NCBI GenBank assembly: GCA_041659685.1
Contig: JBAZXV010000006.1
Span: forward strand, 2,032-66,031
Length of the DNA stretch: 64,000 nucleotides
Direction: 5' to 3'
Source of the DNA: Parcubacteria group bacterium
GTDB lineage: Bacteria > Patescibacteriota > Minisyncoccia > Moranbacterales > UBA11712
Numbering within the stretch: position 1 is the stretch's first letter; every line of letters starts with the position of its first letter. Below are positions 1,817 to 52,354 of this stretch, piece after piece. Below the pieces are notes generated by a model that saw only the letters and a list, made by a program, of their open reading frames with translations, made no database searches and was not told the DNA's origin. Position numbers and translations under genes: made by a program.

Positions 1817-3067
1817 TTATTTTTCTTTGCTCGCCCCCGTCAAAGCAAGCCCCATTCGGTGCTCCTTAGGTTCAATGGACAGGATTTTCCATTTGTAGGT
1901 ATCTCCGGTTTGGATGATATCCTCTATATTCTTTCCCGGGTGAGACTCAAGCAGCTCGCTTATATGGGCAAGTCCGTGAATATCGTCATCCAGGTATACA
2001 AAAGCTCCAAAATGATTGATTTTTCTCACTTGACCCTCTACTACGTCTCCCGGCTTGTATTTATTCTCCACTTCAGACCAGGGATCTTTTTGAAGCGCCT
2101 TGATGCTCAGGGACACCCTTGTATCATCAATGCCGATGATTTGGCATTTCACCTTGTCTCCGGTTTTAATGATTTCTCTGGGGTTGTCAATAAGTTGCCA
2201 GGCTAATTCCGAAATATGTACCAGTCCTTCGAGCTTGTCTTCCTCGTTATTGGAATCTTTTTTGCTTGGCGGAAGAAATTTAACGAAAGCTCCAAAATCG
2301 ACAACTCCGCTGACTTCTCCCTCGATAACATCCCCTATCTTGAGTTCTGAAATCGATTTTCTCTCCTGATCGCTGAAGGCAGCCTTTTCGCTTACGATCA
2401 GCTTTTCGCTTTCCCTGTCAGTATCAATCACTTTTACCCGCATTTCTGTCCCTATATATGAACGAAGTTTTTCTAAAATTTTGCTTTTTTCCCCTTCCTC
2501 AACGCGAGGATAGTGCTCGTTTGAAAGTTGAGAAACAGGAAGGAAACCGGTGATTCCGTTAACCTCGACGATAAGACCGCCCTTGTTGGCTTCCAATATC
2601 TTGGTATTGAATATTTCTTCGCCTATTTGCTTTTCTTCAAGATCCAGCCAGGCCTTTTCAATAGAAGCTTCGCGGATTGAGAGTTCGACATATCCCTCTT
2701 CATTCTCAAGATCTGTTACGGTCGCTGAAACGCTGTCTCCGATTTTAAGTTTGTCTGTTGCTCCGAGTCCGTCTTTGATCTCTTTTCCAAGAACAATGCC
2801 CGTTCCAAAAATACCAAGATCCAAGTAGATGGCGTTCGATCCGATTTCGATCACTTTTCCCTCAATGACGTCGCCTTCTTTGGGAAAATTGACCTTGGCT
2901 TGGTTCAAAAAATCGGCCATGCTTGAAGCCGTTTCTTCTTTTTCTTCGGTTTGAGTTTTAACTTCTTCTGATTCCTTTTCTTCCGAAACTGTGCTGATGT
3001 TATCGCTTTTTTCTTCAGAAACCTTGTCGACCTCTTTAGCCAGAGTGTCGTAAATATTATCCAGCAT
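1817..3067 (-). CDS. rpsA: 30S ribosomal protein S1
   Basis: 416 aa with four repeated S1 domains (GDVIEGKV..., GDSVSATV..., GDVIEGEV..., GDKVKCQI..., GDVVEGQV...). Confidence 0.8.
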   Translation of the reverse strand: MLDNIYDTLAKEVDKVSEEKSDNISTVSEEKESEEVKTQTEEKEETASSMADFLNQAKVNFPKEGDVIEGKVIEIGSNAIYLDLGIFGTGIVLGKEIKDGLGATDKLKIGDSVSATVTDLENEEGYVELSIREASIEKAWLDLEEKQIGEEIFNTKILEANKGGLIVEVNGITGFLPVSQLSNEHYPRVEEGEKSKILEKLRSYIGTEMRVKVIDTDRESEKLIVSEKAAFSDQERKSISELKIGDVIEGEVSGVVDFGAFVKFLPPSKKDSNNEEDKLEGLVHISELAWQLIDNPREIIKTGDKVKCQIIGIDDTRVSLSIKALQKDPWSEVENKYKPGDVVEGQVRKINHFGAFVYLDDDIHGLAHISELLESHPGKNIEDIIQTGDTYKWKILSIEPKEHRMGLALTGASKEK

Positions 3068-3409: not shown

Positions 3410-4078
3410 ATGACCATTCAATGGTACGGACATTCTTGTTTTAAGATTTCAACCAAGCCCGAGGGGCGCGGTTCAGGGGAAGATGTGATTGTTTTCACCG
3501 ATCCTTTTCAAAAGGAGATCGGACTCCGCCCTCCCCAGGGAAAAGCCGATATTGTGACAATAAGCCATGACCATAATGACCACAATAACTCAGATGCTCT
3601 CAGAGGAGAGCCGGCGGTTTTGGACATACCAGGAGAATATTCTATTAAAGGAGTTTCGATTAAGGGGGTCAGTTCTTTCCACGACAAGAAGGAAGGGATG
3701 GAAAATGGCTTAAACACAATATTTATATTCGAAAGCGAAGGCGTGCGATTTTGCCATCTTGGCGATTTAGCAACGCCTCTTGACAAGAAGCAGCTTGAGG
3801 AAATAAACGGAGTTGACATTTTGGCGGTCCCGGTCGGAAACCGAAAATCTCTTAATGGAAAGGAAGCTAAAGAGGTGATCGGCCAGATCGAACCGAAGAT
3901 TATTCTGCCAATGCACTATAAAATCGAAGGATCGAAATTTCAAGGCGACGACGAGAAAGTTTTTTGCAAGGAAATAGGTTCTTGTCCAAAGGAAAAACTG
4001 GCAAAATTAATTATCAAAAAGAAGGATTTGGAAGGAAAGGAGATGGAAATAGTCATGATGGAGGCATTGAGCAGCTAA
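3410..4078 (+). CDS. MBL-fold metallo-hydrolase
   Basis: 222 aa; HxHxDH metal-binding motif (ISHDHNDHN). Confidence 0.7.
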   Translation: MTIQWYGHSCFKISTKPEGRGSGEDVIVFTDPFQKEIGLRPPQGKADIVTISHDHNDHNNSDALRGEPAVLDIPGEYSIKGVSIKGVSSFHDKKEGMENGLNTIFIFESEGVRFCHLGDLATPLDKKQLEEINGVDILAVPVGNRKSLNGKEAKEVIGQIEPKIILPMHYKIEGSKFQGDDEKVFCKEIGSCPKEKLAKLIIKKKDLEGKEMEIVMMEALSS

Positions 4079-4079
4079 A

Positions 4080-4514
4080 TTGAAAATAAAGTCAGATTTT
4101 TGTTACGAAAGTTATTTTATGGGGCTTCAGGAATACGTAAAAAATCTTCAAAAAAAGCCTCTTCGCCAGCGCGAACGGATTGCCGTTGCGGCTACTGGCG
4201 TCTCTTTTGCTATTATTCTGATCATTTGGCTCATTTCTTTTTCAGAAATGAACAGTAGCAACGCCCCTGCGGAAAGCAATACTTCAACCATCGATCAGCT
4301 GAAAAACCTGAAGGACGATATGGGAGAAGGAAAGAAATCAATACAAGAAATGTGGAGCCAGCTTCCGTCTCAGGAAGATGTTAATGCCTCCGTCCAGCCG
4401 TCCGGACCAGGAGAAGGGGGCATTAACGGCGCCGATGCTTCCGATAATCAAAATGCGGGCGAAAATGAAAAAAGTGGCGATCAGCAAAATGACGGCATAC
4501 CCCCGCTTCCCTGA
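4080..4514 (+). CDS. Hypothetical membrane protein
   Basis: 144 aa; one TM helix, then a low-complexity tail rich in acidic residues, Gly and Asn. Confidence 0.4.
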   Translation: MKIKSDFCYESYFMGLQEYVKNLQKKPLRQRERIAVAATGVSFAIILIIWLISFSEMNSSNAPAESNTSTIDQLKNLKDDMGEGKKSIQEMWSQLPSQEDVNASVQPSGPGEGGINGADASDNQNAGENEKSGDQQNDGIPPLP

Positions 4515-12276: not shown

Positions 12277-12369
12277 GAACGGGTGTTTCCCGTTTTGGCC
12301 GCAAAATAAAAACAGACATCGGAAAGTTAATTTATATATTTTTTATAATTATTGAAAGGAGGTGACGAT

Positions 12370-12723
12370 ATGAATAAAATAAAGTCAGTTATTAGAAAAA
12401 TCGGAATTGGAGCGGTAGTGATTCCCTTTACGGCCCTGGCTCAGTTTCAGCCTCCTTCCGGAACGAATCTTCCGCAATCTTCTATTTATGACATCATCAG
12501 AGGCGTTATGATGTGGGTGTTGGGACTTCTCGGTTTTTTCGCGGTTATCGGTTTTGTGATCAGCGGTATAATGTATCTTGTGGCGGCTGGAGACGAGGAT
12601 TCGCAAAAAAAGGCGAAGAAAGCCATGTATTATTCCATAACCGGGGTGATTGTCGGTTTGGTTGGTCTGGTTGTGATATATGCCGTCAACAAATTGCTGG
12701 GAACAACGTCAACTCAGTTCTAA
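12370..12723 (+). CDS. VirB2/TrbC-like pilin family protein (single module)
   Basis: SD AAGGAGGTGA 5 nt before the ATG at 12370 (the ORF-track TTG start at 12352 overlaps the SD). Signal peptide, then ISGIMYLVAAGDEDSQKKAKKAMYYSITGVIVGLVGLVVIYAVN. Confidence 0.55.
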   Translation: MNKIKSVIRKIGIGAVVIPFTALAQFQPPSGTNLPQSSIYDIIRGVMMWVLGLLGFFAVIGFVISGIMYLVAAGDEDSQKKAKKAMYYSITGVIVGLVGLVVIYAVNKLLGTTSTQF

Positions 12724-12900
12724 GGCGCGTTATATTGCCGATACTATCATTAGCGGCTCTCGACAAGAGGGTCGCTTTTCTATTTCCTGACTGAAAATAT
12801 CGATTTGGGATAAAATCCGGACTATTTCCAGTTTTTAAAATGTATTATATAATCAGGTTGGGAGAATTCTTCGCGAAATAATCAATCTAAGAGAAATAAA

Positions 12901-13269
12901 ATGAAAAACAAAATTGAAAAAACGCTTGCTTTGACAGTAGGTTTCGTTGGAAGTGTCAGCGCCGCTTTTGCTGCTCCAAGCGGATGGAGCACCTCGAATT
13001 ATTCCGGCATGGGTCTTCCGGGCGGATCTATTTATAATATAATCAGCAATACAGTGATGTGGGTTCTGGGTATTTTCGGTTTTATTGCCATAATCGGTTT
13101 TGTGATCAGCGGTATAATGTATCTCACGTCCGCCGGAGACGATGCCGCCATGAAAAAAGCTAAAAATCAGATGACCTGGTCCATAATCGGAGTCGTTGTC
13201 GGATTGGTCGGATATATAGTCATATATGCGGTTAATTCCATGCTCGGCGGGATATCCACCAGTTTCTAG
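12901..13269 (+). CDS. VirB2/TrbC-like pilin family protein (single module)
   Basis: 122 aa; signal peptide; ISGIMYLTSAGDDAAMKKAKNQMTWSIIGVVVGLVGYIVIYAVN, near-identical core to the next paralog. Confidence 0.55.
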   Translation: MKNKIEKTLALTVGFVGSVSAAFAAPSGWSTSNYSGMGLPGGSIYNIISNTVMWVLGIFGFIAIIGFVISGIMYLTSAGDDAAMKKAKNQMTWSIIGVVVGLVGYIVIYAVNSMLGGISTSF

Positions 13270-13294
13270 AAAAATTAATTAATCAGCCAGCAAA

Positions 13295-13648
13295 ATGAAA
13301 AAAACAAAGGGAGTCATTTTTTGCGCGTTAGTCATTTTTTTATTTTTCTTTATCGGAAAAGCCTCTGCTGACGGAGTACTTCTTCCGGATGTCGGGCTTC
13401 CCAGCAAGGGACTCCCGGATATTATCGAAGGTCTCGTTAAATGGCTTTTGGGAGTTTTCGGTTTTCTGGCGATTCTCTCCTTTATTATCAGCGGAGCGAT
13501 GTATTTTTTTTCCGCCGGAGACGATGCCGCCATGAAAAAAGCCAAAAATCAGATGAAGTGGTCCATAATCGGCGTTGTTGTCGGTTTGATGGGATATGTC
13601 GCTATTGCGGCCGTCGATTCGGCATTGCGGGGGAACGGCTTGGGATAA
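13295..13648 (+). CDS. VirB2/TrbC-like pilin family protein (single module)
   Basis: 117 aa; signal peptide; ISGAMYFFSAGDDAAMKKAKNQMKWSIIGVVVGLMGYVAIAAVD. About 85-90 percent nt identity to the preceding gene over ~100 bp, indicating a recent tandem duplication. Confidence 0.55.
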   Translation: MKKTKGVIFCALVIFLFFFIGKASADGVLLPDVGLPSKGLPDIIEGLVKWLLGVFGFLAILSFIISGAMYFFSAGDDAAMKKAKNQMKWSIIGVVVGLMGYVAIAAVDSALRGNGLG

Positions 13649-14624: not shown

Positions 14625-15146
14625 ATGGAAAAGAAGAAGGCGACAACTAGCGAAGCGGAAAAGCTAGTAAAATTCAATGAAAAAGTTCGAAAATCGGCAA
14701 AGCGTCCGGATCTTCGAGCTGGCGATATCGTAAAAATTCACCGCAAAATTAAGGAAGGCAATAAGGAGCGAGTCCAGGTTTTTGAAGGAATTGTTGTCTC
14801 TATAAAGGGCAAGCAAAGCTCCTCGCCGATGGTAACGGTAAGAAAAATATCTTTCGGAGTCGGGATTGAAATAACTGTTCCTTTGTACTCCCCGGTAATT
14901 TCGAAAATTGAAGCGGTAAAAAGAGCTCAAACGAGGCAATCCAAGCTTTATTATCTTAGAAAGAGAGATTTTCGTCTGTCAAAATTAAAAATGAAAGAAC
15001 TGGATAAATTCGTAGCCAAGGAAGAAGAAATACCTGTTGAGGAAGAAGTATCTTTGGATAGCAATATTAGCGACACGGAAAAAAAGAACAATCCCTTGCC
15101 TGAAGAAGGGAAAAAAGAAGAAGATTCCGGAAAGCATGAAGAATAG
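14625..15146 (+). CDS. rplS: 50S ribosomal protein L19 with K/E-rich C-terminal extension
   Basis: RAGDIVKIHRKIKEGNKERVQVFEGIVVSIKG matches the L19 core; about 55 aa acidic/basic tail. Confidence 0.85.
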   Translation: MEKKKATTSEAEKLVKFNEKVRKSAKRPDLRAGDIVKIHRKIKEGNKERVQVFEGIVVSIKGKQSSSPMVTVRKISFGVGIEITVPLYSPVISKIEAVKRAQTRQSKLYYLRKRDFRLSKLKMKELDKFVAKEEEIPVEEEVSLDSNISDTEKKNNPLPEEGKKEEDSGKHEE

Positions 15147-15173
15147 CCAAAAATTAGAGTGGAAAAATTTTAA

Positions 15174-15257
15174 GCCGTGGTGCCGGAATCGGTAGACGGG
15201 CCAGCTTGAGGGGCTGGTGTCCATAAGGACGTGGGAGTTCGAGTCTCCCCCACGGCA
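15174..15257 (+). tRNA. tRNA-Leu (anticodon GAG)
   Basis: Acceptor GCCGTGG/CCACGGC; anticodon stem CCAGC/GCTGG with loop TTGAGGG; long variable arm; T-loop TTCGAGT. Confidence 0.8.
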
Positions 15258-15259
15258 CC

Positions 15260-15333
15260 TCGAACGGGAAAGGGGTCGGGAAAACGGGAGTTTCCCCGTG
15301 GCGGAAGAATTGAAACCGAGGGGTTTCAAAGAG
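15260..15333 (+). repeat. tRNA-associated ~74-bp repeat, copy 1 (TCGAACGGGAAAGGGGTCGGGAAAACGGGAGTTTCCCCGTGGCGGAAGAATTGAAACCGAGGGGTTTCAAAGAG)
   Basis: Starts 2 nt after the tRNA-Leu discriminator; contains an 8-bp hairpin TTGAAACC-GAGG-GGTTTCAA. It is followed at 15351-15370 by a duplicated 3' fragment of tRNA-Leu (GAGAGTCTCCCCCACGGCAC). Confidence 0.85.
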
Positions 15334-15371
15334 GCGTGAAGCGACGAAGTGAGAGTCTCCCCCACGGCACC

Positions 15372-15405
15372 TCGAACGGGAAAGGGGTCGGGAAAACGGG
15401 AGTTT
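15372..15405 (+). repeat. tRNA-associated repeat, truncated copy 2
   Basis: Identical first ~33 nt (TCGAACGGGAAAGGGGTCGGGAAAACGGGAGTT), then diverges; follows the duplicated tRNA-Leu 3' fragment. Confidence 0.7.
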
Positions 15406-15483
15406 TACCTCGGAGAAAGGTATCTGAAAGGGAATATTGATAACAATATTTATTTTTTTGGACAGTATTTTGAATTAATAAGC

Positions 15484-15557
15484 GGGCGCGTAGCTCAGTT
15501 GGTTAGAGCATCTGTCTTACAAACAGAGGGTCAGAGGTTCGATTCCTCTCGCGCCCA
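15484..15557 (+). tRNA. tRNA-Val (anticodon UAC)
   Basis: GGGCGCGTAGCTCAGTTGGTTAGAGC...; anticodon stem TCTGT/ACAGA with loop CTTACAA; T-arm GGTTCGATTCC; acceptor 3' CGCGCCC-A. Confidence 0.85.
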
Positions 15558-15558
15558 C

Positions 15559-15632
15559 TCGAACGGGAAAGGGGTCGGGAAAACGGGAGTTTCCCCGTGG
15601 CGGAAGAATTGAAACCGAGGGGTTTCAAAGAG
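15559..15632 (+). repeat. tRNA-associated ~74-bp repeat, copy 3
   Basis: Identical to copy 1; followed at 15633-15663 by a duplicated 3' fragment of tRNA-Val (CGAGGTTCGATTCCTCTCGCGCCCAC). Confidence 0.85.
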
Positions 15633-15666
15633 CGCAGCGAGGTTCGATTCCTCTCGCGCCCACATT

Positions 15667-15705
15667 GCCGGGCTAGCTCAGTCCCGCCGGGGGCGGGCAG
15701 GGTCC
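15667..15705 (+). pseudogene. tRNA-like chimera: 5' acceptor/D-arm of tRNA-Phe fused to a CCCGCC...GGCGGGCAGGGTCC GC-hairpin module
   Basis: GCCGGGCTAGCTCAGT is identical to the tRNA-Phe 5' end, then CCCGCCGGGGGCGGGCAGGGTCC. No anticodon arm or T-arm. A related module occurs at 34967-35025. Confidence 0.5.
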
Positions 15706-15753
15706 GAGCAGAGGACTTGAGTTTAAAGTAAAATTAACATCCGAATAATTCTA

Positions 15754-15825
15754 GCCGGGCTAGCTCAGTGGTAGAGCAGAAGACTGAAAATCTTTGTGTG
15801 CCCAGTTCGATTCTGGGGCCCGGCA
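15754..15825 (+). tRNA. tRNA-Phe (anticodon GAA)
   Basis: GCCGGGCTAGCTCAGTGGTAGAGC; anticodon stem GAAGA/TCTTT with loop CTGAAAA; T-arm CCCAGTTCGATTCTGGG; discriminator A. Confidence 0.85.
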
Positions 15826-15840
15826 CAGTTAATGTAATCT

Positions 15841-15912
15841 GCGGGCGTCGTATAGTGGCCATTACACGGCCTTGCCAAGGCTGAAACGGCGGTTCGATTC
15901 CGCTCGCCCGCT
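15841..15912 (+). tRNA. tRNA-Gly (anticodon GCC)
   Basis: Acceptor GCGGGCG/CGCCCGC with discriminator U; anticodon stem CGGCC/GGCTG with loop TTGCCAA; T-loop TTCGATT. Confidence 0.8.
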
Positions 15913-15952
15913 CAGAAAACGAAAGAATCCCCCCCCCTGGGGGATTTTTTTG
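15913..15952 (+). terminator. Rho-independent terminator of the tRNA cluster
   Basis: AATCCCCC-CCCT-GGGGGATTTTTTTG; the stem includes a C9 homopolymer. Confidence 0.65.
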
Positions 15953-16172
15953 TTTGGTCGACCGTGAAAGGCTGAATCGGACAAGGGATAATTAACTAAC
16001 AATGCCTCCAGATAAACTTGAACCATGTCCGATAACAATCGCAAAATTATTGCATGATGAGAGCCTTAAATAAAAAATTGTTAAGACGGCAGCATGAATT
16101 AATTGTTTCCCGGCATCGCTTGCCGCAGGTTCCCTTTGTCCTGCCGTCCCGCATTCACGTTCCATTTTAGCG

Positions 16173-29937: not shown

Positions 29938-31569
29938 ATGATTAGCAAAATTCCTAAGCCAATCGTCGAAATTATCCAAAAACTCGAAATGGCCGGTTTT
30001 GAGGCTTTTGTCGTGGGCGGGTGCGTGCGAGACCTTCTTATGGATGTTGAGCCGAAGGATTGGGACGTGACGACGATTGCGAAGCCGGAAGAAATTGTGA
30101 AAATATTTCCAGATAGTTTTTATGAAAATAAGTTTGGGACTGTTGGGGTAAAGATTAGGAATTATGAATTAGGAATTATGAATTATGGAGATAAAGAGGG
30201 AATAAGCGTGGTTGAAGTGACGACCTATCGCGTTGAGTCGAAATATTCTGACAAGAGGCATCCGGATGAGGTGAAGTTCGCGAAGACGCTGGAAGAAGAT
30301 TTGAGCCGGAGAGACTTTACAATTAACGCTCTCGCGTTAAAAATATCCAATATCCAATATCTCCCCCTACGGGGGACCACCCGCAGGGTGGCAATATCCA
30401 ACAAAATCTCAAAATTTAAATCTCAAAATACTAAATACCGGACACTAGATGCTAAATACGAGATTATTGATTTGTATGACGGGCAAAAGGATCTCCAAAA
30501 GAAAATCATTCGCGCGGTGGGGGATCCGGATGAACGCTTTGACGAGGACGCGCTTCGAATGATGCGGGCGGTGCGGTTTGCGGTGACGCTCGGAGGAGAC
30601 ATTGCCGTTAAGAAAACCGATGGTCCAAGAAAATTGAATGAAAAACTTCCGTTTGAAATCGAAGAGAAAACCAAAAAGGCAATTGCAAAAAACGCTAAGA
30701 ATTTGAAATATATCGCTCTTGAAAGGATCCAGGATGAGCTTAATAAAATTCTGGTTTCGGATTTTGCCGCTGAAGGAATTGAATTATTAAGAGAATTGAA
30801 ACTGCTTCAATATGTCATTCCCGAACTCGAAAGAGGATACGGAGTGGGACAAAACCGCCATCACATTTACACTATTTATGAACATTTGATTCTTTCGCTC
30901 AAAAATTGTCCTTCGAAAAAAATTGAAGTGCGCCTGGCGGCTCTTCTTCATGATATCGCAAAACCGGAAACAAAGAGGGGCGAGGGCGCATATTCGACGT
31001 TCTATAACCACGATCATGTCGGAGCGCGGGTGGCCGAGAAAATTTTGCGACGGCTGAAATATTCAAACGACGCTATTCAGAAAGTCAGGCTGCTCGTTGA
31101 CCACCATATGTTTTATTACAACGTTGACGAAGTGGGTGCCTCAAGCGTGCGGCGGCTTGTTCAAAAAGTGGGGCTTGAAAATATCGATGATCTTATTGAT
31201 CTTCGCGTCGGCGATCGGCTGGGGTCGGGAGTTCCAAAGGCTGTGCCGTATAAACTCCGCCACTTCAAGTATATGGTGGATAAAGTTTCGAGCGACCCGC
31301 TTTCGGTTAAAATGCTCAAAGTGGACGGCAATGACCTCATGAAAGAGCTTAAGCTTGAACCCGGTCCGAAAATCGGCGCCGTTTTAGACGTTCTCCTTTC
31401 AGAGGTTATTGAAAATCCAAATGAAAATAAGAAGGAAATATTGCTGAAGAGAGCAAAAAAATTATCGGAAGAAAATTTGCCAAAACTTCGCGAAATGGCG
31501 AAGGAAAAAATTGAAGAAAAAAAAGAGGAGGAAGATAAGGAAATTAAGAAAAAATATTGGGTGAAGTGA
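29938..31569 (+). CDS. cca: CCA-adding tRNA nucleotidyltransferase with HD domain; carries an in-frame ~35-aa insertion that contains a genomic repeat
   Basis: 543 aa; Pol-beta head GGCVRDLLM; RDFTINALAL then inserted segment KISNIQYLPLRGTTRRVAISNKISKFKSQNTKYRTLDAKYEIIDLYDG before the usual GQKDL; HD domain LHDIAKP; K/E-rich tail. Confidence 0.75.
   Translation: MISKIPKPIVEIIQKLEMAGFEAFVVGGCVRDLLMDVEPKDWDVTTIAKPEEIVKIFPDSFYENKFGTVGVKIRNYELGIMNYGDKEGISVVEVTTYRVESKYSDKRHPDEVKFAKTLEEDLSRRDFTINALALKISNIQYLPLRGTTRRVAISNKISKFKSQNTKYRTLDAKYEIIDLYDGQKDLQKKIIRAVGDPDERFDEDALRMMRAVRFAVTLGGDIAVKKTDGPRKLNEKLPFEIEEKTKKAIAKNAKNLKYIALERIQDELNKILVSDFAAEGIELLRELKLLQYVIPELERGYGVGQNRHHIYTIYEHLILSLKNCPSKKIEVRLAALLHDIAKPETKRGEGAYSTFYNHDHVGARVAEKILRRLKYSNDAIQKVRLLVDHHMFYYNVDEVGASSVRRLVQKVGLENIDDLIDLRVGDRLGSGVPKAVPYKLRHFKYMVDKVSSDPLSVKMLKVDGNDLMKELKLEPGPKIGAVLDVLLSEVIENPNENKKEILLKRAKKLSEENLPKLREMAKEKIEEKKEEEDKEIKKKYWVK
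30360..30401 (+). repeat. Twin-hairpin ~42-bp repeat (TCTCCCCCTACGGGGGACCACCCGCAGGGTGGCAATATCCAA), copy inside the cca coding sequence
   Basis: Two adjacent hairpins CCCCC-TAC-GGGGG and CCACCC-GCA-GGGTGG; flanked by AATATCCAA direct repeats. A second copy lies at 39702-39743. Confidence 0.8.
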
Positions 31570-34966: not shown

Positions 34967-35025
34967 GGGCCTGTCGTATAGTCCCGCCATATTTATCCGC
35001 CTTTGGCGGAGGCGGGCAGGGTCCA
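34967..35025 (+). pseudogene. tRNA-like chimera: tRNA 5' end (GGGCCTGTCGTATAGT) plus CCCGCC...GGCGGGCAGGGTCC module
   Basis: Starts like the adjacent tRNA-Ala. The middle is replaced by CCCGCCATATTTATCCGCCTTTGGCGGAGGCGGGCAGGGTCCACA with an inner CCGCC-TTT-GGCGG hairpin. No anticodon or T-arm. Confidence 0.45.
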
Positions 35026-35052
35026 CACACGGCATTCGTAAAACATTAAATC

Positions 35053-35123
35053 GGGCCTATGGTATAGTGGCAGAACGCGACATTCGCATTGTCGAGACGG
35101 CGGTTCGATTCCGCCTAGGTCCA
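35053..35123 (+). tRNA. tRNA-Ala (anticodon CGC)
   Basis: Acceptor GGGCCTA/TAGGTCC with G3:U70; anticodon stem CGACA/TGTCG with loop TTCGCAT; T-arm GGCGGTTCGATTCCGCC. Confidence 0.75.
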
Positions 35124-35139
35124 CAAAATAACAAATAGT

Positions 35140-39677: not shown

Positions 39678-39701
39678 ACTGAGAATAGCCAATAACCAAA
39701 T

Positions 39702-39743
39702 TCTCCCCCTACGAGGGACCACCCGTAGGGTGGCAATATCCAA
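39702..39743 (+). repeat. Twin-hairpin ~42-bp repeat, intergenic copy (TCTCCCCCTACGAGGGACCACCCGTAGGGTGGCAATATCCAA)
   Basis: 39 of 42 nt identical to the copy inside cca; the second hairpin is preserved with a loop change (GCA to GTA). Confidence 0.8.
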
Positions 39744-39852
39744 ATAAGTTCCAATCACCAATGACTGAATAACCAAGATGTTCTTTATTTTGAAAAATTG
39801 GTCATTGATTATTATTTAATTATTGTTCTAGGAATTTGAAGTTTTAAAGATT

Positions 39853-50320: not shown

Positions 50321-50393
50321 TCGAACGGGAAAGGGGTCGGGGAAACGGGAGTTTCTCCGGGGTGGAAGTATTGAAACCGAAAGGTTTCAAGGA
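50321..50393 (+). repeat. tRNA-associated ~74-bp repeat, copy 4 (variant TCGAACGGGAAAGGGGTCGGGGAAACGGGAGTTTCTCCGGGGTGGAAGTATTGAAACCGAAAGGTTTCAAGGA)
   Basis: Begins 2 nt after tRNA-Pro; hairpin stem TTGAAACC/GGTTTCAA is preserved with loop GAAA. Followed by hairpin CCGCCAGATGGCGG and a duplicated tRNA-Pro 3' fragment (ATTCCCAGCAGCCCGAAA, 50418-50436). Confidence 0.85.
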
Positions 50394-50471
50394 TCCGCCA
50401 GATGGCGGAAACGTGAAATTCCCAGCAGCCCGAAATAAGAAGAAATAGTAAATAATAAGAGTATTCGCGCT

Positions 50472-50874: not shown

Positions 50875-50946
50875 GCGGGTGTTGTATAATGGCTATTACA
50901 TCAGGTTTCCAACCTGAGGACGAGGGTTCGATTCCCTTCACCCGCT
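50875..50946 (+). tRNA. tRNA-Gly (anticodon UCC)
   Basis: Acceptor GCGGGTG/CACCCGC with discriminator U; anticodon stem TCAGG/CCTGA with loop TTTCCAA; T-loop TTCGATT. Confidence 0.8.
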
Positions 50947-50947
50947 C

Positions 50948-50988
50948 ACTGAAACGAAAAATCTCCTTAAGGGGATTTTTTGTTTTGC
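50948..50988 (+). terminator. Rho-independent terminator after tRNA-Gly (ATCTCCTTAAGGGGATTTTTTG)
   Basis: Hairpin plus T-run. A 34-nt segment including it (50946-50979) is repeated at 52321-52354. Confidence 0.65.
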
Positions 50989-51006: not shown

Positions 51007-51080
51007 TCGAACGGGAAAGGGGCCGGGGAAACGGGAGTTTCTCCGGGGTGGAAGTATTGAAACCGAAAAGTTTCAAGGAG
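51007..51080 (+). repeat. tRNA-associated ~74-bp repeat, copy 5
   Basis: TCGAACGGGAAAGGGGCCGGGGAAACGGGAGTTTCTCCGGGGTGGAAGTATTGAAACCGAAAAGTTTCAAGGAG; followed by hairpin GCGAAGCGACGTTCGCTTC and a duplicated tRNA-Gly 3' fragment (CCCTTCACCCGCTCAG, 51097-51113). Confidence 0.85.
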
Positions 51081-51356
51081 CGAAGCGACGTTCGCTTCCC
51101 TTCACCCGCTCAGTTTTCGAAAAATTCAAATCAAGGCTTTCACAAAACTTTTTCCAGTTCTGACCAAAAAATTATTTTCACAAAAATTGGCTTGCTTGAT
51201 CCCTTTTTTGTGTGAATTTTCTTCATATTTAAGGCAAAATATCTCCTCAAAAACTTGGTTCTAGCTGTGTGCCCTTGCTTCTGTCGAACTTACGGAAGCA
51301 CGACTTGACAAAAATAGTGAATAGAGTATGATAATAGTATAATATTCACTAAAAAT

Positions 51357-52320: not shown

Positions 52321-52354
52321 TCACTGAAACGAAAAATCTCCTTAAGGGGATTTT
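52321..52354 (+). repeat. Direct repeat of the tRNA-Gly 3' flank and terminator (TCACTGAAACGAAAAATCTCCTTAAGGGGATTTT)
   Basis: 34 of 34 nt identical to 50946-50979. The two copies bracket repeat copy 5, the tRNA fragment and the Fic gene. It also acts as a terminator between convergent genes. Confidence 0.8.

Follow-up and report, generated by a model that had tools for sequence, protein, structure and literature searches.

Two of the tRNA genes in the window (the whole 64-kb stretch of DNA that was analysed) are preceded at close range by the 5' half of a tRNA of the same specificity, interrupted in its D-loop by a GC-rich hairpin. These elements are probably relics of tRNA-gene replacement, namely the superseded 5' halves of older genes, which were colonised by a small palindromic hairpin element. 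The tRNA genes are usually seen as the most static of bacterial genes, whereas here they have been replaced repeatedly and the old gene has been left behind as a half. The setting is that of ultra-small CPR genomes, belonging to organisms thought to have little mobile DNA, in which some complete tRNA genes sit inside the anticodon loop of others, and tRNA remnants and protein genes alike are colonised by a small palindromic element. On the practical side, such halves break assemblies, as several contigs end there, and could mislead tRNA annotation.

Anatomy of the two loci

Both loci follow the same plan, on the forward (+) strand: positions 1-16 of a tRNA, a cassette, positions 22 to ~35 of the tRNA, a spacer, and then the intact cognate tRNA gene. 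The first three parts, when located 5' of a working tRNA gene, are called hereafter a 5' half element. The cassette, CCCGCC-loop-GGCGGG-CAGGGTCC, stands in for nucleotides 17-21 of the D-loop (GGTA or GGCA), and both strands of the D-stem are kept.

The first locus begins with 15667-15705, which reads GCCGGGCTAGCTCAGT CCCGCC GGG GGCGGG CAGGGTCC. A copy of tRNA-Phe 1-16 (acceptor 5' strand, D-stem 5' strand and AGT) occupies 15667-15682 and matches 15754-15769 at 16/16 positions. It is followed at 15683-15705 by the cassette, in place of GGTA, with CCCGCC at 15683-15688, the loop GGG, GGCGGG at 15692-15697 and the tail at 15698-15705. A copy of tRNA-Phe 22 to ~36 then extends over 15706-15720 (GAGCAGAGGACTTGA, against GAGCAGAAGACTGAA in the working gene). 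A non-conserved spacer of 33 nt (15721-15753), which contains a promoter-like TTTAAA-16-AATAAT at 15722-15749, separates this half from the working tRNA-Phe(GAA), intact at 15754-15826 according to both ARAGORN and Rfam.

The second locus begins with 34967-35024, which reads GGGCCTGTCGTATAGT CCCGCC (22-nt loop) GGCGGG CAGGGTCC. Its tRNA-Ala-type 1-16 segment (34967-34982) matches the neighbouring tRNA at 14/16 positions and the element of a related locus, L022, at 16/16. The cassette (34983-35024, with its tail at 35017-35024) harbors within its loop a nested hairpin, TCCGCC TTT GGCGGA, at 34996-35010. Positions 22 to ~35 follow at 35025-35038 (ACACACGGCATTCG, against GAACGCGACATTCG in the gene), then a non-conserved spacer of 14 nt (35039-35052) and the intact working tRNA-Ala(CGC) at 35053-35124, again called by ARAGORN and Rfam.

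As tRNA sequence resumes 3' of the cassette, only nucleotides 17-21 of the D-loop are replaced. The half truly ends in the anticodon loop, having run through the 3' strand of the D-stem, the 5' strand of the anticodon stem and the first bases of the loop. The preliminary description, in which the hairpin module took the place of the anticodon and T-arms, has to be amended on this point: these are 5' halves with a D-loop insertion, cut in the anticodon loop. Their tRNA derivation and the presence of the GC-rich stem CCCGCC(loop)GGCGGG at both loci were correctly recognised, the segments matching tRNA 1-16 and 22 to ~35, and the exact identity claimed with the neighbouring tRNA holds for Phe and fails for Ala. 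The 14-mer GGCGGGCAGGGTCC, common to both loci, occurs exactly twice in the window and 0 times in each of 100 dinucleotide-preserving shuffles. Chance does not explain the shared loci.

Recurrence in CPR genomes and metagenomes

Exact-pattern scans were extended to 185,579 genomes, a metagenome collection and IMG/VR. The scan of one GTDB genome per species returned two true cases; they precede tRNA-Cys in two CPR genomes, one of Magasanikbacteria (L003) and the other of Yonathbacteria (L004). A third match, inside an ORF of 73% GC, is due to chance. The metagenomes yielded 14 true loci and three GC-rich chance matches. Two diverged versions (L028 and L038) came instead from unbiased synteny look-ups. 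Taken together, 12 distinct versions of the 5' half element were found in several CPR lineages (Phe 4, Ala-CGC 3, Cys 2, Val-TAC 1, Val-CAC 1 and Thr-GGT 1). The module is thus not unique to the two window loci, and the proposal of a second family, distinct from the 74-bp repeat described below, is borne out. The same applies to the idea that the tRNA loci of this genome are hotspots for small elements: among the 14 tRNA genes detected in the window by ARAGORN, six are flanked by a partial copy of themselves. A covariance model built on the 12 versions retrieved no additional copy in a tRNA remnant when run over 220 kb of related sequence.

The architecture is strikingly constant. Every version lies on the tRNA strand, and the working tRNA, always specific for the same amino acid, is always downstream. 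In 12/12 versions the cassette begins after AGT (position 16) and stops at the D-stem 3' strand, and the distance between its end and the next tRNA-like 5' end is 15-60 nt. In L016 and L022, a second 5' half stands between the element and the working gene. These junctions and the tail are identical across five tRNA specificities; random insertion is not the explanation, and this constancy counts against the relic reading. Identical sequences were recovered in independent assemblies (e.g. L017/L019/L024 and L038-L042), so that an assembly artefact is excluded. The window itself comes from a bacterium of the Parcubacteria group, and Moranbacteria are among its nearest relatives as judged by L19. 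A viral origin was rejected, IMG/VR giving chance matches only, on contigs of 67-72% GC lacking tRNAs. A solitary CRISPR repeat was rejected likewise: in the genomes, the metagenomes and IMG/VR the cassette appears as single copies and never as arrays, and its loop varies from 3 to 22 nt.

tRNA genes nested within tRNA genes

Two relatives retain more of the arrangement. In L016, a Val-type 5' half element with its cassette is followed by another 5' half and by an intact tRNA-Val(TAC); after the latter come the two matching 3' halves, that of the second gene before that of the first. The intact gene is bracketed by the inverted repeat CCCCATTAGATTTC / GAAATCTAACGGGG, and the acceptor strand AGCGCGC in the 3' half of the first outer gene pairs with GCGCGCT. 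When the insertions are removed in silico, both outer genes are called tRNA-Val(TAC) by ARAGORN; when the cassette is kept, no call is made. In L038, an Ala-type element is followed by an inner tRNA-Ala and then by the T-arm and acceptor 3' strand of the outer gene, the T-loop of which contains a CCCGCC..GGCGGG hairpin. These two arrangements identify the element as the 5' half belonging to an outer gene whose anticodon loop is interrupted by an insert carrying a whole tRNA gene.

In L016, the region 1027-1385 thereby constitutes a triple nesting, in which two outer tRNA-Val-like genes are split in the anticodon loop around the intact tRNA-Val(TAC). The middle gene of this locus shows the changes GG to GA in the D-loop and TTC to TTT in the T-loop, which may represent a G19:C56 to A19:U56 covariation.

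No outer 3' half was found within 1.5 kb of either window locus, nor in most other cases, and nesting at these loci is therefore inferred. No tRNA is recognised when the 5' half element, cassette included, is fused to the working gene's 3' half.

On the basis of these comparisons, the following course of events is proposed. The 5' half element would be the 5' half (1 to ~35) of an older tRNA gene, superseded by a complete gene of the same specificity, which in the window starts 28-48 nt beyond the 3' end of the cassette. Where the arrangement is best preserved among relatives, the new gene sits, together with a short leader and trailer, within the anticodon loop of the old one, and the 3' part of the old gene is still present downstream. 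The resident gene would thereby have become redundant. The window loci presumably had the same history of nested insertion and afterwards lost the resident 3' half, so that the 5' half now stands with the old promoter region on one side and the new gene on the other. This half would have gained a hairpin element midway in the 34-nt repeat that it shares with the new gene. A direct repeat broken in this manner into 16 and 13 nt should hinder the precise deletion of the relic. The remaining half is unable to produce a tRNA, and is presumably either silent or transcribed as an upstream leader RNA. We infer the insertion mechanism itself from the comparison of these sequences.

The recombination scars suggested initially come near to this reading; the superseded outer halves, nested in better-preserved relatives, had not been foreseen. 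A simple tandem duplication of the leader and 5' half was considered as a general explanation and rejected: the upstream flanks and the spacers are alike only at shuffle level, and L016 and L038 are nested.

Gene turnover at orthologous loci

The locus containing tRNA-Phe lies downstream of rplS. Near-identical Phe elements are present in the window, L015 and L026, and the element of L028 is degenerate, with 7/23 positions of its cassette changed. In L030, the element is absent and a 3' fragment of tRNA-Val directly abuts tRNA-Phe. This is the state expected before the insertion, or else after a precise deletion between the 16-nt repeats.

The Ala locus follows a conserved ORF of 97 aa. In L031 and L037 an undisrupted tRNA is found directly at the end of this ORF, and in L044 the tRNA-Ala is contained within a perfect inverted repeat of 19 bp (TTCCCGCCCCGCGTCAAAA / TTTTGACGCGGGGCGGGAA). 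In the window, L022 and L038, the 5' half element is accompanied by inner genes of three different allele types. The locus of L022 is two-layered, and its second layer has a 5' half that does not differ from the working tRNA-Ala of the window. One tRNA-Ala(CGC) allele, GGGCTTATAG..., is identical at 72/72 positions in L022, L037 and L044, while the adjacent ORF is only 71-83% identical. This contrast suggests that the allele spread horizontally as a cassette. At the Leu locus, the tRNA-Leu(GAG) of the window type is represented in L015, L028 and L030 only by fragments flanking a different tRNA-Leu. The comparison of the Phe, Ala and Leu loci shows that their tRNA genes have evidently been replaced repeatedly.

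A dispersed family of hairpins

The cassette belongs to a larger family with the consensus CCCGCC-loop-GGCGGG-CA(A/G)G, copies of which occur in tRNA remnants, spacers and ORFs, one of them in frame in a protein gene. About half of the other CCCGCC-loop-GGCGGG hairpins located in spacers, ORFs and tRNA fragments continue into CA(A/G)G after the stem. The protein-coding copy was detected with the covariance model of the 12 versions in an SMC gene, where 20 nt are exactly those of the cassette core, CCCGCCAAAGGCGGGCAGGG; the contig (L027) also carries a Val-type 5' half element. The copy lies in a stretch of 36 residues which aligns to only two residues of solved SMC heads, and corresponds to an in-frame insertion of ~34 residues. 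Many dispersed copies with a conserved hairpin and conserved ends, as in REP or MITE sequences, were thus found: 12 in tRNA remnants, in addition to those of SMC, spacers and ORFs. In the 64-kb window only two copies possess the tail.

The inserts that carry tRNA genes have related ends: CCCC...GGGGCAAG in L016, CCCC...GGGGCAGG in L020, TTCCCGCC...GGCGGGAA in L044, and TCCCGC...GCGGGA around the tRNA-Leu-TAG of L028. The cassette is accordingly read as a cargo-less member of a family of hairpin-ended insertions. The hairpin element itself would be, or would once have been, mobile. No target-site duplication was recognisable, and the genes neighbouring the loci are housekeeping genes, among which no transposase was identified. 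In the tRNA remnants, the presence or absence seen concerns the whole half only (L030).

Rickettsia palindromic elements insert in frame into genes, and into RNA genes. These elements and the REP/REPIN sequences resemble the present family in their GC-rich hairpin with a short conserved extension, in their dispersal over spacers, RNA-gene remnants and, in frame, SMC, and in a loop that tolerates nested hairpins. The present family differs from them by an apparent lack of sequence relation, by its constant junctions in tRNA remnants, and in that neither a RAYT nor another transposase was identified.

Two further hairpin-containing regions deserve mention. Within the SMC insertion (L027, 11819-11926), inverted repeats GTCATTCTGAG / CTCAGGATGAC surround the copy of the core. 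In L015 (11236-11296), the rplS ORF runs through a 5' fragment of tRNA-Leu and a GC hairpin, and its product acquires a C-terminal extension ..KAVVPPAVAKALAGKESVT.

Conservation of the 5' halves and possible function

The halves are far better conserved than neutral DNA, which speaks against their being mere relics. Between lineages, identity reaches 94-100% in the 16-nt 5' part (15-16/16 positions), 71-93% in the part after the cassette and 62-100% in the cassette itself. The working tRNAs are 72-100% identical, the spacers are at shuffle level, and the four-fold degenerate sites of rplS are saturated among the window, L015, L028 and L030 (24-42% identity). At the Ala locus, the 5' part of the element, 15-16/16 conserved, surpasses the 5' parts of the working genes (10-13/16) and differs from them, so that conversion from the neighbouring gene is not the explanation. 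The changes found in the cassette hairpin preserve pairing on the sense strand (one C-G to U-A, three G.U and one break, with 98.6% of cells paired), and the surrounding D-stem is retained in every tRNA type. In the versions found at Ala genes, the 5' strand GGGCCUG is the pairing partner of the tail, one of the pairs being G3.U, and the sole change seen in the tail affects the bulged base.

These features are those on which a different explanation can be built, according to which the half-tRNA with its hairpin is a selected functional RNA, which might act as a decoy, as a structured leader or as a scaffold for processing the downstream tRNA, its tRNA origin being mere history. The cassette of L017, just 15 nt from the tRNA, is favorable to this view, since it must belong to the leader or to the promoter region. 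Other observations are less easily accommodated. The Phe copy of L028 is degenerate, as seen above, and the Ala copy of L038 has five changes in the stem and tail; L030, L031, L037 and L044 dispense with the element altogether. Beyond the hairpin, the predicted folds are inconsistent between tRNA types, with modest z-scores of -0.9 to -2.6, and no Rfam model matches. A conserved fold between the tail and the acceptor 5' strand was rejected, as it is limited to the Ala versions and inconsistent in Phe, Cys, Val and Thr. A functional RNA is for these reasons regarded as rather unlikely, even if it is the strongest competitor. A mixed account, in which hairpin-bounded tRNA-gene cassettes land in the loops of resident cognate genes to give nested genes, and selection keeps the displaced hairpin-bearing halves as functional RNAs, for instance leader scaffolds or decoys for factors that bind tRNA, is also considered doubtful.

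Two readings of the conservation may be considered: either an old relic is under selection, or a resident gene that was functional until recently has been replaced recurrently and recently. The graded decay of L028 and L038 and the loss in L030 favour weak or no selection; the orthologous hairpin inserts with diverged loops that lie within the Leu fragments of L015, L028 and L030 favour long persistence. As the halves are conserved far beyond the neutral expectation, they offer a testable case, either of the exaptation of a tRNA fragment or of a very rapid and recurrent turnover of tRNA genes.

Site-specific integration and splicing as improbable alternatives

Integrative elements typically leave partial direct repeats of the tRNA beside the gene. 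The halves could accordingly be attL/attR scars of an integrase-bearing element residing in tRNA genes and later deleted almost wholly. The resemblance is genuine, as a partial direct copy stands beside an intact gene, with breakpoints in the anticodon or T loops, and in L032-L036 a large serine recombinase element does adjoin the orthologous tRNA-Ala at its 3' end. Here, however, the repeat (16 + 13 nt) is the 5' half and not the 3' end of the tRNA, and the gap between the cassette and the next tRNA-like 5' end, which contains no gene and no integrase, is only 15-60 nt throughout. The att sites reconstructed for the local recombinase are unrelated to the cassette: attB (L031, ..CAGGTCCAC/GTTTAGGG, where the slash marks the junction), attL (L032, ..CAC/CATATTGAATTA..) and attR (L043, ..ACACCAC/GTTTAGGG) contain neither cassette-like sequence nor a duplicated tRNA half. 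Furthermore, the nested loci L016 and L038 are impossible to obtain by a single crossover. An att scar is consequently a very improbable origin. The narrower proposal that the cassette is the attP/attR end of the serine recombinase element at tRNA-Ala was rejected, the cassette being absent from attB, attL and attR.

The serine recombinase element itself (attL in L032-L036, attR in L043 at 1-50, empty site in L031) is located exactly at the 3' end of tRNA-Ala(CGC), with a crossover at ..GTCCAC/. L037 has the same CCATA junction, followed by masked sequence.

Descriptions of disrupted tRNA genes come mainly from Archaea, the tRNA introns of bacteria being reported as self-splicing (PMC4390854). 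The halves might in principle be exons that are spliced to a tRNA, belonging either to a split or multi-intron gene as in Archaea or to a bacterial gene with a group I intron. The interruptions of the D-loop, anticodon loop and T-loop do match those of Thermoproteales tRNA genes with their multiple-intron, split, tri-split and "translocatable" intron forms, in which short hairpin inserts likewise recur at one position across tRNAs and gene halves are separate (PMC4390854), and deletion of the insertions restores complete outer genes in L016. The present loci differ in being bacterial (CPR), in having no bulge-helix-bulge, and in that the insert of the anticodon loop is a complete working tRNA gene while the interrupted gene is usually incomplete and redundant. 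This explanation is hardly credible: ARAGORN, with introns of up to 400 nt allowed, called no intron-containing tRNA over the window loci, L016 or L038 (the preliminary description had named such a call as the outcome that would speak against it); a matching 3' exon is absent within 1.5 kb in the window; the succession of D-stem, 3 nt (AGT), 6-bp hairpin, 8 nt (CAGGGTCC) and D-stem does not provide a pair of 3-nt bulges offset by a 4-bp helix; Rfam detected no group I intron, either in the window at gathering score or in 15100-16000 at E<=10, and the inserts (a spacer of 14-33 nt plus a tRNA) are too short for one; an intact working gene is always present; and the outer genes have uncompensated defects, such as a T-stem mismatch in the first of L016 and an A.C pair in the Leu gene of L030.

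In the window, only ordinary tRNAs reach the Rfam gathering threshold. The weak matches to tmRNA models over 15532-15707 (15 bits, the thresholds being 47 and 84, in the search of 15100-16000 at E<=10) are due to the tRNA fragments present there. Searches of the accessible literature for introns in CPR tRNA genes, disrupted tRNA genes of bacteria, and tRNA remnants or nested tRNAs brought up no description of this arrangement.

The 74-bp family and other repeats

A second family forms the mirror image of the 5' half elements. The 74-bp element is found on the 3' side of tRNA-Leu, Val, Pro and Gly, and the sequence after it invariably repeats the 3' strands of the T-stem and acceptor stem of the tRNA concerned. 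Both families are conserved modules joined to a one-sided copy of the adjacent tRNA. One such element, with the last ~25 nt of tRNA-Val (15559-15665, + strand), abuts the first locus. Other copies are located in the window at 15260-15371 (with a partial one at 15372-~15420), 50321-50436 and 51007-51115, and in relatives at ~3841-3947 of L028, at ~1818-1943 of L030 and after tRNA-Ser in L038.

For seven copies of this family, RNAalifold predicts a long-range helix between GGGAA on the 5' side and UUCC(C/U) in the tRNA fragment, enclosing two conserved GNRA hairpins, CGGGAAAAC-GNRA-GUUUUCCCG and UUGAAACC-GNRA-GGUUUCAA. HDV-like theta ribozymes of gut phages directly follow tRNAs (PMC10879173). 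The 74-bp family shares with them this position directly 3' of tRNAs, a conserved structured RNA and GNRA-capped hairpins; it departs from them by the tRNA 3'-strand copy that comes next and by the absence of a match to the HDV or any other ribozyme model, or indeed to any family, in Rfam. On the basis of the predicted structure, the 74-bp element could be a processing RNA or a ribozyme.

Further repeats were noted in passing. In L004, an inverted copy of the T-arm (3009-3024) lies in the spacer between the Cys half and tRNA-Cys, and at 3840-4230 a tRNA-Leu(TAG) has its own cassette-free 5' half upstream and its own last 17 nt downstream. In the window, a 71-nt repeat composed of two adjacent GC hairpins is present at 30342-30412 and 39684-39754 (85% identical), and the terminator of tRNA-Gly(TCC) is duplicated exactly over 34 nt (50946-50979 and 52321-52354). 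Finally, three tandem paralogous genes for small membrane proteins are found at 12352-13648, upstream of rluA-rplS, and the genes at the syntenic position in relatives bear the annotation T4SS pilin (TrbC/VirB2-like).
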